A program made the position numbers. Positions 14,501 to 20,500 of a DNA stretch of 64,000 nucleotides are shown one piece after another. Source of the stretch: Escherichia coli (GTDB taxonomy: Bacteria > Pseudomonadota > Gammaproteobacteria > Enterobacterales > Enterobacteriaceae); assembly GCF_030384885.1 (NCBI RefSeq), contig NZ_CP128613.1, one strand, 5' to 3'. The stretch's first letter is position 1; every line of letters begins with the position of its first letter.

Positions 14501-17500
14501 TCAACGGTTGCGTAATTAAGGGACACAGCCTAGTGTTATGTTTTACAGTAACACGCCGAGGCGTGTTGGCTGATTAGAACTGGTAGACTAAGCCCACAGC
14601 AACGATATCATCGGTAGCGATGCCGTTTGCTTCGTAGAAGTCATCATCGTTGTCCAGCAGGTTAATTTTGTAATCAACATAGGTGGACATATTTTTGTTG
14701 AAGTAGTAGGTCGCACCGACTTCAACGTATTTAACCAGATCTTTGTTAGTGTAACGCGGGTCGCCGTTGCCGTCATGAGCCCAGCCGCCTAAATCCTTAC
14801 CTTTAGATTGCAGGTAAGCGATGGACGGGCGCAGGCCGAAGTCGAACTGATACTGAGCAACAACTTCAAAGTTTTGGGTTTTGTTAGCGATGGCTGATCT
14901 TGATTCACCATTATCAAACTCGCCACCACCATATGGGGTCATATTGCGAGTTTCAGCGTACATAGCTGCTAAATACACATTATTAGCATCATATTTTGCA
15001 CCAACAGTCCATGCTTCAGCGGTTTCACCACCAGCATTTCTGTTGCTATGGTTACGATCATTTAAACCAACTCCAACCTGGCGATCTGAGCGATCAGAGT
15101 TTGAATATGCAGCACCCAGACTTAAACCGAAGTCGAAGTCGTAGGATGTAGACATACCGAAACCATCACCATTTTCTTTGGAAAGGCTACGGCCATCACC
15201 ACTACCGGAACCTTCCTGCCCGAAGGGGCCACCACTTTCATTATTACCCTGATATTGCAGAGCAAAGTTCAGACCATCAACCTGACCAAAGAAGCCATTG
15301 TTACGGTAGGTTGCAACGCCGTTGGTACGACCGTTCATGAAATTGTCGGCACCAGCATAGGTATCACCACCAAATTCTGGCAGCATATCGGTCCATGCTT
15401 CGATATCATATACGACACCGTAGTTACGACCATAGTCGAAAGTACCATTCTGACCAAAACCTAAACCTGCGAATGCCAGACGGGTAGCAGAGTTATCGCC
15501 ATCGCCTTCTGTGCCATTTGCCTGCAGGTTGTATTCCCACTGACCGTAACCAGTGAATTGATCAGCGATCTGAGTTTCACCTTTGAAACCGATACGAGCA
15601 TATGACATATCGCCATCAGCGCCCGAGTTGTCAGAGAAGTAGTGCAGACCTGCTACTTTTCCGTAGAAATCCAGTTTATTACCATCTTTATTATAGACTT
15701 CAGCCGCATTTGCTGCGCCAGCAACTAATAACGCCGGGACCAGCATTGCCAGAACTTTTCTTTTCATTATGTATTCCCTTGTGATTATAATCTTCATGAA
15801 TATATCAATAAGTGCCGTTATCCAAAAAAAAGCACATTTGGATACTATTCTATGAAGTTCATTTTATTTTAAGGATTACATGTAACAAATGTATTTAAAA
15901 GATTTCAAAATGTTTCCAATCTATTTAATATAATTCAGAATTATGAATTCTAGATATATACATTCATGAAAATTATGAATATATATCAATATGTTATGAG
16001 TTGATTGAAAAGATAGGAAGTGTCAATGATTTTTGCGCCAGACGGCCTATGTGATCGCGCGCACATTAATGAAGGCATAAAAAAAGCCGGCATCATGCCG
16101 GCCCAAAAAATATAAACAAGACGATAAAAGGCTAATAACGGGGTTATCATGACACAGAAATCTAAAAAGGTATAATTGTATTCAGTGCTAATGTATTTTT
16201 TGGGTGAATTAATAAAACCATTATCCAAGATAAAAATAAATCTTTATTGCTGTTTTTCCGGTAATTATTGCCGTTGCGCAAAAACTATCTATTTGCTCAA
16301 AAAATGATTGAGTCTTGACTGACTCATCCAATGTGGAAAAATGTGACTTTTATCACATAATAGTACTAAGTTTGAATTTTCCGGGTTATCTCAAAATGGA
16401 ATACGGTTCGACAAAGATGGAAGAGAGACTCTCTCGCAGCCCTGGCGGCAAATTGGCTTTGTGGGCTTTCTATACATGGTGTGGCTATTTCGTCTGGGCA
16501 ATGGCGCGATACATCTGGGTGATGAGCCGGATCCCCGATGCCCCCGTGTCGGGATTTGAAAGTGATTTAGGATCTACTGCGGGGAAGTGGTTAGGAGCAT
16601 TGGTCGGATTTCTGTTTATGGCCCTGGTTGGTGCCTTGCTAGGCGGCATTGCCTGGTACACCCGACCTCGTCCCGCACGTAGCAGACGCTATGAATAAAA
16701 ACTGCTAAGGTTGCGACTCTTTGGCAACGGAGCGCGTATGGATTTACAACACTGGCAGGCACAGTTCGAAAACTGGTTGAAAAACCATCATCAACATCAG
16801 GACGCGGCACATGACCTGTGTCATTTTCGCCGCGTCTGGGCTACGGCACAGAAACTAGCGGCAGATGACGACGTTGATATGCTGGTGATTTTAACCGCCT
16901 GTTATTTTCACGATATCGTGAGCCTGGCGAAAAATCATCCGCAACGGCAGCGTTCTTCAATACTGGCAGCAGAAGAGACGCGTCGCCTGCTGCGTGAAGA
17001 ATTCGCGCAATTTCCAGAGGAGAAAATTGAGGCTGTTTGCCATGCCATTGCCGCACACAGTTTTAGCGCGCAAATTGCCCCTTTAACGGTGGAAGCTAAA
17101 ATCGTACAGGATGCGGATCGGCTGGAAGCTCTGGGGGCGATTGGCCTGGCGCGTGTGTTTGCCGTTTCGGGGGCGTTGGGCGTGGCATTGTTTGATGGCG
17201 AAGATCCGTTCGCGCAGCATCGCCCACTTGATGATAAACGTTACGCGCTGGATCATTTTCAGACTAAGTTGCTGAAGCTACCGCACACCATGCAAACCAT
17301 AAAAGGCAAACAACTGGCGCAGTACAACGCGCAATTTTTAGTCGAGTTTATGGCGAAGCTCAGTGCCGAGCTGGCGGGAGAGAATGAAGGTATCGATCAC
17401 AAAGTGATTGATACGTTTTCACCGGTTGGCTGAGCGCGTGGCCCTAAATGATGGTAATTATGTTAACCTGTCGACCATCTCAGATGGCCGGTTAAATCTA

Positions 17501-20500
17501 TGCAGGAAAATATATCAGTAACCGATTCATACAGCACCGGGAATGCCGCACAGGCAATGCTGGAGCAACTGCTGCAAATTTATGATGTCAAAACGCTGGT
17601 GGCGCAGCTTAATGGTGTGGGTGAGAATCACTGGAGCGCGGCAATTTTAAAACGTGCGCTGGCGAATGACTCAGCATGGCACCGTTTAAGTGAGAAAGAG
17701 TTCGCCCATCTGCAAACGTTGTTACCCATTCCACCGGTACATCATCCGCATTATGCATTTCGCTTTATCGATCTATTTGCCGGGATTGGTGGTATTCGTC
17801 GCGGTTTTGAATCGATTGGTGGGCAGTGCGTGTTTACCAGCGAATGGAACAAACATGCGGTACGCACTTATAAAGCCAACTATTATTGCGACCCGGCGGT
17901 GCATCACTTTAATGAAGATATTCGCGACATCACTCTCAGCCACAAAGAGGGTATAGGTGATGACGCGGCGGCGGAACATATCCGTCAACATATTCCTGAG
18001 CACGATGTTTTACTGGCCGGTTTTCCTTGTCAGCCGTTTTCTCTGGCTGGCGTATCGAAAAAGAACTCACTCGGACGAGCGCACGGTTTTGCCTGTGATA
18101 CCCAGGGCACGCTGTTCTTCGATGTGGTGCGTATTATCGACGCGCGTCGCCCGGCGATTTTTGTGCTCGAAAACGTCAAAAACCTGAAAAGCCACGACCA
18201 GGGGAAAACGTTCCGTATCATCATGCAGACGTTGGATGAACTGGGCTATGACGTGGCAGATGCAGAAGATAATGGCCCGGACGATCCGAAAATCATTGAC
18301 GGTAAACATTTCCTTCCGCAGCACCGTGAACGCATCGTGCTGGTGGGTTTTCGTCGCGACCTGAATCTGAAAGCCGATTTTACCCTGCGTGAGATCAGCG
18401 AATGTTTCCCTGCACAGCGAGTGACACTGGCGCAGTTGCTGGACCCGATGGTTGAGGCGAAATATATCCTGACGCCGGTGCTGTGGAAGTACCTCTATCG
18501 TTATGCGAAAAAACATCAGGCGCGCGGTAACGGCTTCGGTTATGGAATGGTTTATCCGAACAATCCGCAAAGCGTCACGCGTACGCTTTCTGCTCGTTAT
18601 TACAAAGATGGCGCGGAAATTTTAATTGATCGCGGCTGGGATATAGCCACGGGTGAGAAAGACTTTGACGATCCGCAGAACCAGCAACACCGCCCACGTC
18701 GGTTAACGCCTCGTGAATGTGCGCGCTTAATGGGCTTTGAAGCACCAGGAGAAGCGAAATTTCGCATTCCGGTTTCGGACACTCAGGCCTATCGCCAGTT
18801 CGGTAACTCGGTGGTCGTGCCGGTCTTTGCCGCGGTGGCAAAACTGCTTGAGCCAAAAATCAAACAGGCAGTGGCGTTGCGTCAGCAAGAAGCAAAACAT
18901 GGCCGACGTTCACGATAAGGCTACACGCAGCAAAAATATGCGCGCAATTGCCACGCGCGATACGGCGATTGAGAAGCGCCTCGCCAGTTTGTTAACCGGG
19001 CAGGGACTGGCGTTTCGCGTTCAGGACGCCAGTTTGCCCGGACGCCCGGATTTTGTTCTTGATGAATATCGCTGCGTGATATTTACCCACGGCTGCTTCT
19101 GGCACCATCATCACTGCTATCTGTTTAAAGTGCCTGCGACTCGAACCGAGTTCTGGCTGGAGAAGATAGGTAAAAATGTTGAGCGCGATCGCCGCGACAT
19201 TAGCCGCTTGCAGGCGCTCGGCTGGCGTGTATTGATTGTCTGGGAGTGCGCGTTACGCGGGCGCGAAAAATTGACGGATGCGGCACTTACCGAGCGTCTG
19301 GAAGAGTGGATCTGCGGCGAAGGTGCCAGCGCGCAGATCGACACGCAGGGGATTCATTTACTCGCTTGATGAGTCCTGAATAACTGGCGCAACTACGGGT
19401 TTTGCCGGGAAGAGATATTTTCCCAACGTGACCAGTACCACCGCGAAGACAATCACGCCGAGCGCCAGCCATTCAATCTTCGACAGCGTCTCTCCGCCCA
19501 GTCCCGTACCCAGCAAGACCGCGACCACCGGGTTAACGTAGGCGTAGCTGGTGGCGAGAGCCGGACTGACGTTGCGGATTAAATACATATAAGCGTTAAT
19601 GGCGATAATCGAACCAAACAGCGCCAGATAGCCGACCGCAAGGAAGCCTGAAAGGGAAGGGATCGTCGTGAGTTTTTCACCCGCAATCATCGACGCAATC
19701 ATTAACACCACGCCAGCCGCCAGCATCTCAATCGCACCCGCCATCATCCCTACAGGTAAGGTAATGCGCGAGCCATAAACCGAGCCAAACGCCCAGCTAA
19801 TCGAGCCGATTAAAATCAGAATCGCACCCCACGGATTGCCGCTTAAATTTCCACCGCTATTGAGCATGATGATTCCGGCAAGCCCAATGGCGATACCCAT
19901 CCATTCCAGTTTGCGCGTTTTAATGCCAAACAGGCGGCTGAAGCACAGGGTAAAGAGGGGCACGGTTGCAACCACTACGGCGGCGATGCCGGAAGGAACA
20001 TTTTGATGTTCGGCAACCGTTACCATGCCATTACCGACAGCCAGCAATAACAGGCCAATCAGCGCGGCATTGAGCAGCGGACGTAGCGGGGGGAGTTTGT
20101 GTCCGCGCAGTAGCAAAAATGCCAGCAATAAAATACCGGCTGTCAGGAATCGAACGCCCGCCATCATTAACGGAGGCCAGCTTTCCACGCCAATCCGAAT
20201 GACAAAATAGGTTGAGCCCCAAATGATATACAACGCAAACAGCGCGCCAAAAAGCGGTAACAACTGGCGGAAACGCATAATCCCTCACGGTGGAAATAAA
20301 AAGGTGGTTCATAGTAAACGTGAAAATCATTCTGCTGGCGAGAGATATAATTGCACTTGATTGTTAAAAAAATGTTGACCTATGAAGCAAGTATCAGAGC
20401 TGCCGTTTTTGCTTCATACTTACTCCCTTCAACAATAAAAATGAGAGGGAATGCTTTTGGCCGGGAGTAGTTTACTGACGTTGCTCGATGATATCGCCAC

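Follow-up and report, generated by a model that had tools for sequence, protein, structure and literature searches.

Is the dcm-vsr pair found in a 64,000-nt stretch of Escherichia coli DNA (contig NZ_CP128613.1 of assembly GCF_030384885.1; hereafter the window) the familiar one, in which an orphan cytosine methyltransferase is coupled to its own mismatch endonuclease, or does the locus hide a restriction partner, a misplaced gene start, or a disturbed junction? A first reading of this DNA, made without database searches (the sequence-only reading), had favored the familiar arrangement. We put at about 96% the probability that the locus is the ordinary chromosomal dcm-vsr operon of E. coli, composed of an orphan CCWGG methylase and an overlapping, translationally dependent repair nuclease; none of the results contradicted the identification of either gene. 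The locus is already known and ordinary, and its value here is that of an internal control, as the exact localization of a textbook pair supports the other gene calls in the window. Comparison with other genomes refined known biology modestly, in three respects: (i) a 20-nt overlap as the commonest form of the junction, (ii) the origin of that length, and (iii) a rare allele with a weak Shine-Dalgarno (SD) sequence.

Identity and start sites of dcm and vsr

Both open reading frames (ORFs) agree to the base with the span of 17500-19369 given by the sequence-only reading, whether judged from the ORF list, the raw sequence, the profile matches, or the Prokaryotic Genome Annotation Pipeline (PGAP) annotation of E. 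coli 2013C-4282 (Table 1). The chromosome of that strain is 100% identical to the window over 17300-19500, and PGAP puts dcm and vsr at exactly the same coordinates there. The dcm product was matched over residues 1-469 by NCBIfam NF007772, the model of the Dcm subfamily (943.2 bits; cut-off 710), and by Pfam PF00145 (260.9 bits; cut-off 22), its N-terminal domain was also matched by PF18284, and PDB entry 3ME5 aligned with it end to end. Alignment to K-12 Dcm and Vsr, which had been proposed as a check, gave 459 of 472 identical residues (97%; 13 changes) for Dcm. All of its methyltransferase motifs are kept: I (FAGIG, aa 93), IV (PCQ, aa 176-178, with the catalytic Cys177 encoded at 18028-18030), VI (ENV, aa 224), VIII (QHRER, aa 274), and X (GNSV, aa 435). 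From motif VIII to the C-terminal motifs only three changes relative to K-12 are present, and these are conservative (D298E, M382I, and L393Q). Given this degree of identity, Dcm of the window would be expected to share the specificity of the K-12 enzyme for the inner cytosine of CCWGG.

The vsr product scored well above the thresholds of TIGR00632 (181.5 bits; cut-off 97.85) and PF03852 (134.6 bits; cut-off 27), and the PADLOC Vsr model covered residues 1-156 of 156. It is identical at 153 of 156 positions (98%), residue for residue, to K-12 Vsr and to the crystallized protein of PDB entry 1CW0, the differences being V54L, E106A, and E128A. The sequence-only reading had held that the absence of catalytic residues would argue against vsr; all 12 residues that we checked are present and identical to those of K-12. 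These comprise what we take, from 1CW0, to be the catalytic and metal-binding residues (D51, T63, H64, H69, and D97), the zinc ligands (C66, H71, C73, and C117), and the intercalating residues (F67, W68, and W86); D51 is encoded at 19049-19051 and H69 at 19103-19105. By its 98% identity to the characterized enzyme, Vsr would nick 5' of the T in a T:G mismatch within a CTWGG context.

At the nucleotide level, dcm is 94.0% identical to its K-12 counterpart (85 differences, 71 at codon position 3) and vsr 94.3% identical (27 differences, 21 at codon position 3). As the differences in the two genes fall mostly at the third position, both are under purifying selection. The K-12 locus (b1961-b1960) has the same gene order, the same protein lengths (472 and 156 aa), an identical 20-nt overlap in the +1 frame, the same yedJ and yedA flanks, and the same catalytic residues; it differs by the 13 and 3 substitutions described above, with Q466K in Dcm of the window, and in the SD sequence of vsr (GAGG in K-12, GAAG in the window). 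Structures are available for Vsr (1CW0, 1VSR, and 1ODG) and for a Dcm homolog labeled "cytosine-specific methyltransferase" (3ME5 and 3LX6).

The start of vsr deserves separate comment, because the mechanical ORF list opens the vsr frame at an upstream TTG (18737). A start there would yield an ORF of 210 aa and an overlap with dcm of 182 nt rather than 20, an alternative that we consider barely credible. The Vsr family models match from residue 1, encoded by ATG 18899, and the chain of 1CW0 begins at A2. Within the 162 nt upstream of 18899, six of the seven differences between K-12 and the window are at dcm codon position 3, which corresponds to position 2 of the vsr frame. Further, at 23 loci of other genera, among the matches listed in the survey described below, the methylase ORF ends before the homologous vsr start is reached. 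On the basis of the family models, 1CW0, the upstream substitution pattern, and the junctions of other genera, TTG 18737 was rejected in favor of ATG 18899. The 156-aa product has a calculated mass of ~18 kDa, which also speaks for the shorter form, and start codons homologous to ATG 18899 are present in other sampled genera.

Table 1. Coordinates of the dcm-vsr locus and of associated features in the 64-kb window
Feature	Position	Strand	Details
dcm, DNA-cytosine C5-methyltransferase	17500-18918	+	472 aa; ATG 17500, TAA 18916-18918 (ORF list and raw sequence)
Dcm domains	DNA_meth_N, aa 19-75; C5-MTase, aa 87-448		Profile matches
vsr, very-short-patch repair T:G mismatch endonuclease	18899-19369	+	156 aa; ATG 18899, TGA 19367-19369
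Dual-coding overlap	18899-18918	+	20 nt including the dcm stop; sequence identical to K-12
vsr ribosome-binding region	18887-18898	+	Within dcm coding sequence: AAGAAGCAAAAC; K-12: AAGAGGCACAAC
Inverted repeat GACCATCT-C-AGATGGCC	17473-17489		10 nt upstream of dcm ATG
vsr/yedA convergent 3' overlap	19358-19369		12 nt; yedA on - strand, 19358-20278; same geometry in K-12
Island flanked by insertion sequence (IS) fragments	9700-14520		Between hchA and the porin gene, ~5 kb upstream of dcm; absent from K-12
Unannotated ORF	10806-12203	+	465 aa; Asn/Ser/Glu-rich N-terminus

The dcm-vsr overlap and the operation of the pair

As had been noted from the sequence alone, vsr begins 20 bp inside the 3' end of dcm, in a different frame: the genes share 18899-18918, with dcm in frame 1 and vsr in frame 2 (17500 mod 3 = 1 and 18899 mod 3 = 2, placing vsr in the +1 frame). 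The shared nucleotides encode Vsr codons 1-7 (M A D V H D K) together with the final codons and stop of dcm (..G R R S R *), and the dcm TAA is built from Vsr codons 6-7 (GAT AAG; AAT AAG in other loci). The arrangement had been called a known coupled one, and the literature bears this out, with a partial overlap of dcm and vsr documented (PMC4444293) and the two genes described as one operon (PMC4924334; PMC12907096).

We surveyed such junctions by a pattern scan for the Vsr motif FTHGCFWHH, with one genome per species, which returned at least 120 loci, nearly all of them from Enterobacterales. With the window and K-12 added, 84 loci among the matches listed have a C5-methylase ORF directly upstream of vsr, and it is to these matches that the following counts apply. 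Exactly 20 nt are shared by the two genes in 49 of the 84 junctions, 12 overlap by other lengths (1-35 nt), and 23 have a gap of 3-14 nt and no overlap. No other form of the junction is as common as the 20-nt overlap across Enterobacterales in this sample. Conservation at the junction peaks in the overlap: in the 49 loci of this class, 13 of its 20 sites do not vary, and its mean entropy (0.28 bit) is lower than that of the 60 nt on either side (dcm upstream, 1.05 bit; vsr downstream, 0.43 bit).

Across loci, Dcm ends in a variable C-terminal tail (HGRRSR, NDGCAQ, NGGRSQ, and others), and Vsr begins with a conserved sequence, M(A/T)DVH(D/N)K. We infer that the constraint on the 20 nt comes mainly from the Vsr N-terminus, with the dcm frame continuing only as far as the first stop codon that the Vsr codons offer; the length of the overlap would then follow from the position of the dcm stop within Vsr codons 6-7. 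The first 14 residues of Vsr are reportedly important for both its nuclease and its repair activity (PMC2715241).

The survey also contained departures from the paired arrangement. Escherichia sp. MOD1-EC7003 (locus L096) has an intact vsr but lacks the central part of dcm (query nt 111-928). Several loci of Enterobacteriaceae, including those of Kosakonia, Phytobacter, and Atlantibacter, carry a vsr homolog with a strong SD and without a recognizable Dcm ORF directly upstream; some of the vsr loci of this kind simply end too early to show one.

Family knowledge and published work together suggest how the pair would operate. Dcm would use S-adenosylmethionine to methylate the inner cytosine of CCWGG by way of a covalent Cys177 intermediate, and spontaneous deamination of the resulting 5-methylcytosine to thymine would create a T:G mismatch. 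Vsr would recognize the mismatch in its CTWGG/CCWGG context and nick 5' of the T, after which DNA polymerase I and ligase would replace a short patch and restore the C, with stimulation by MutS and MutL. Of this pathway, Dcm methylation, 5-methylcytosine deamination, the Vsr nick, the short patch, and stimulation by MutS and MutL have been described (PMC2715241; PMC12907096), as has the status of Dcm as a solitary enzyme that targets CCWGG (PMC4924334). The same logic is found in the V.Ngo and V.Nme nucleases of Neisseria and the ScmA-VsrA pair of Caulobacter, where a Vsr-family nuclease offsets the mutagenic cost of 5-methylcytosine; those pairs differ in that they have other target motifs, the Caulobacter genes are unlinked, and the Neisseria vsr genes lie beside methylase genes that are often truncated (PMC12907096).

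The overlap would add a translational link to this chemistry. Both genes would be carried on one mRNA, on which ribosomes finishing dcm would end 17 nt past the vsr AUG, and Vsr synthesis would depend on the translation of dcm, tying the repair enzyme to the methylase that makes its substrate. The dcm-6 nonsense mutation of K-12, at codon 45, is stated to abolish vsr activity as well (PMC4444293, citing Dar & Bhagwat 1993). A promoter scan returned no sigma-70-like site on the + strand inside dcm, and this result, combined with the very weak SD of vsr, is consistent with a dependence of vsr on dcm.

Restriction partners, the junction allele, and the mutation footprint

That the methyltransferase is an orphan, with no cognate restriction gene nearby, had been asserted by the sequence-only reading, and for the 64-kb window the claim stands. 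With tblastn we found neither an EcoRII-type nor an MvaI/BcnI-type endonuclease in the six frames of the 64 kb (best E = 0.5); as controls, a plasmid methylase and a plasmid Vsr strongly matched dcm and vsr. No restriction enzyme is present in the PGAP annotation of the homologous 64 kb of 2013C-4282. The best PADLOC model for Dcm is that for orphan methyltransferases (oMTase), at 1061 bits versus 852 bits for the best model of a Type II restriction-modification (R-M) methylase, and the immediate neighbors of dcm-vsr are yedJ and yedA. These searches support the view that, within the window, Dcm would act as an orphan.

Relatives of Dcm on plasmids offer a useful contrast. Homologs of 60-80% amino acid identity occur on 3796 plasmids, which are mostly conjugative and from Klebsiella, Escherichia, Salmonella, and Enterobacter. 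Both of the plasmid relatives that we inspected (n = 2; 68-70% identity) belong to R-M systems, with the endonuclease gene directly beside the methylase gene. One is an EcoRII-type system on the Morganella plasmid NZ_CP135145.1, whose methylase is 68% identical to Dcm over 449 aa and has the same domain layout; M.EcoRII shares the CCWGG specificity. Directly downstream of this methylase lies a convergent gene for the endonuclease (404 aa; EcoRII-N and EcoRII-C domains); the annotation there lists no vsr, whereas in the window vsr occupies that place. The other is an MvaI/BcnI-type system on the Acinetobacter plasmid NZ_CP044465.1, which has a Dcm-like methylase (70% identity) and a linked Vsr homolog (43% identity to Vsr of the window). 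In that system, unlike in the window, the restriction gene lies between the methylase gene and vsr, and vsr is on the opposite strand, without overlap or co-translation.

It could nevertheless be argued that Dcm is the modification subunit of a complete R-M system whose endonuclease is encoded nearby and has escaped recognition, the 465-aa ORF of the upstream island (Table 1) being one candidate. Restriction endonucleases are often undetectable by sequence, searches of Pfam, PADLOC, NCBIfam, and PHROGs gave no significant match to this ORF, and the close plasmid relatives of Dcm do sit in R-M systems. We regard the idea as very improbable. In genuine R-M relatives the restriction gene lies within ~100 nt of the methylase gene, while here the porin gene, drpB, and yedJ separate the island from dcm; yedJ and yedA border dcm-vsr just as they do in K-12, which lacks the whole island; neither of the two tested families of CCWGG endonucleases is present in any frame of the window; and the orphan model of PADLOC fits Dcm best. 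In addition, the island ORF has relatives in 1107 genomes, with at least 80% of its length covered in 398, as compared with 5358 genomes for dcm, indicating no co-occurrence. Having no family match and a distribution that does not track that of dcm, the ORF was rejected as a hidden restriction partner.

Several points limit the reading of the locus as an ordinary dcm-vsr operon: (i) an endonuclease partner elsewhere in the genome is possible, as orphan status applies to the 64 kb; (ii) the predicted pairing of the vsr SD with the anti-SD sequence amounts to -0.8 kcal/mol in the window versus -5.8 kcal/mol in K-12, and with so weak an SD the output of Vsr could differ from that of K-12; (iii) CCWGG is the most under-represented pentamer of the window (observed-to-expected ratio 0.72) under a Markov-3 (maximal-order) model, as it is in K-12; and (iv) codon usage confounds the compositional footprint that might be ascribed to the pair, and this footprint varies with the model chosen and has the same values in K-12, so that it is not specific to this strain.

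The second of these points concerns a rare allele. At 18891 the vsr SD is changed from GAGG in K-12 to GAAG in the window, a change that is synonymous in dcm, and a second difference, at 18895, gives rise to Dcm Q466K. For the 49 loci with a 20-nt overlap, among the matches listed, the mean anti-SD pairing is -5.7 kcal/mol, and that of the window is the second weakest. A 43-mer spanning the junction is of the window type in 37 of 5426 complete genomes and of the K-12 type in 5300.

The two genes might be intact and Vsr still be under-produced or uncoupled in this lineage, with reduced repair and with CCWGG sites as stronger mutation hot spots. Although the weak predicted pairing of the GAAG allele and the rarity of the junction type argue for such a scenario, we think it quite unlikely. 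Weak vsr SDs (approximately -3 kcal/mol) also occur in several genera with the same overlap, Citrobacter, Klebsiella, and Kluyvera among them, which suggests that vsr translation is driven mainly by something other than the SD, and the functional effect of the allele is uncertain. Moreover, the few amino acid changes among the nucleotide differences in vsr (3 in 27) indicate purifying selection, and comparison of this haplotype with K-12 shows fewer transitions than background at the inner C of CCWGG (see below). A related reading would have the junction allele (18891 plus Q466K) remove the vsr SD altogether, making Vsr synthesis wholly dependent on ribosomes that end at the dcm stop and resulting in a lower Vsr:Dcm ratio and more C-to-T changes at CCWGG. 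We hold this to be unlikely; if true, the allele would be a natural expression variant of the balance between methylation and repair.

The mutation footprint was compared with what an ordinary, active dcm-vsr operon might leave. Between the window and K-12, transitions were found at 3 of 352 methylated inner C positions of CCWGG and at 16 of 352 outer C positions, with a C:G background of 3.1%. The low value at the inner C fits effective very-short-patch repair, with the reservation that the numbers are small and confounded by codon position. CTAG is depleted in the window (observed-to-expected ratio 0.47) and CCAG enriched (1.28), with the same values in K-12, a skew that is consistent with published ideas on very-short-patch repair and with long-term Vsr activity. 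Under a zero-order model, CCWGG sites number 147 against 113 expected.

Genomic setting

Of 5426 complete E. coli genomes, 5358 contain the dcm-vsr locus, and the gene order of the window, drpB-yedJ-dcm-vsr-yedA-yedI, is that of K-12. The divergence of the two genes from K-12 is shared with a much larger segment: approximately 2976-37273 (hchA/hprS through fliF, ~35 kb) is 94-95% identical to K-12. For both dcm-vsr and fliI, identity to more than 5100 complete E. coli genomes lies at 90-95%, while that for uvrC (57790-59622), at the right end of the window, is in the 95-99% band. A divergence specific to dcm-vsr was therefore rejected, as the surrounding ~35 kb is equally divergent. The pattern suggests that the ~35-kb haplotype may be an imported or ancient allelic segment around the flagellar region.

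Upstream of dcm, the 66 nt that separate it from yedJ (17434-17499, + strand) contain no recognizable SD before the dcm ATG, and the promoter scan gave no sigma-70-like match in this intergenic region. They do contain an inverted repeat (Table 1) that is a perfect 8+1+8 in K-12 and has one mismatch in the window; it is kept within Escherichia and is not found in Salmonella or Citrobacter. According to the title of a 1994 paper by Som and Friedman, the M.EcoRII methylase regulates its own gene and binds its own promoter region. By analogy, one might speculate that the repeat takes part in a similar self-regulation by Dcm. No Rfam family was matched within 17500-19369.

At the other end of the pair, vsr and yedA converge and overlap by 12 nt, which leaves no intergenic space for a terminator, so that their transcripts must run into each other. 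Within the region scanned, no terminator-like site was found on the + strand after the vsr stop. The first such site downstream of yedA, on the - strand (18958-18940) and antisense to vsr codons 14-20, consists of a GC-rich hairpin and then a T-run; the hairpin is present in Escherichia and in some other genera. In 115 distinct sequences, the three stem pairs at wobble positions were paired in 39%, 48%, and 30% of cases (chance, 6/16). With wobble pairing near chance and no covariation, the hairpin was rejected as a selected terminator of yedA; fixed Arg and Ala codons probably account for the high pairing of the other stem positions. It could still act as a terminator in E. coli.

Farther upstream, relatives of the 465-aa island ORF are annotated as "hypothetical protein", including one in O157:H7 at 88% identity. 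The porin gene next to the island (14574-15797, - strand) is intact; PGAP names it ompC, and it occupies the position of yedS, a pseudogene in K-12. The small RNA rseX, at 16079-16168, adjoins it. From 2279 rightward, the window differs from 2013C-4282 by three mismatches; leftward of that point (1-2278) the two are unrelated. ARAGORN found no tRNA in positions 1-4000 of the window. The breakpoint at 2279 corresponds to a tRNA-Ser site in 2013C-4282, and the window has there an intact 405-aa ORF for a phage-type integrase (897-2114, - strand), indicating a different integrated element at the serU site.

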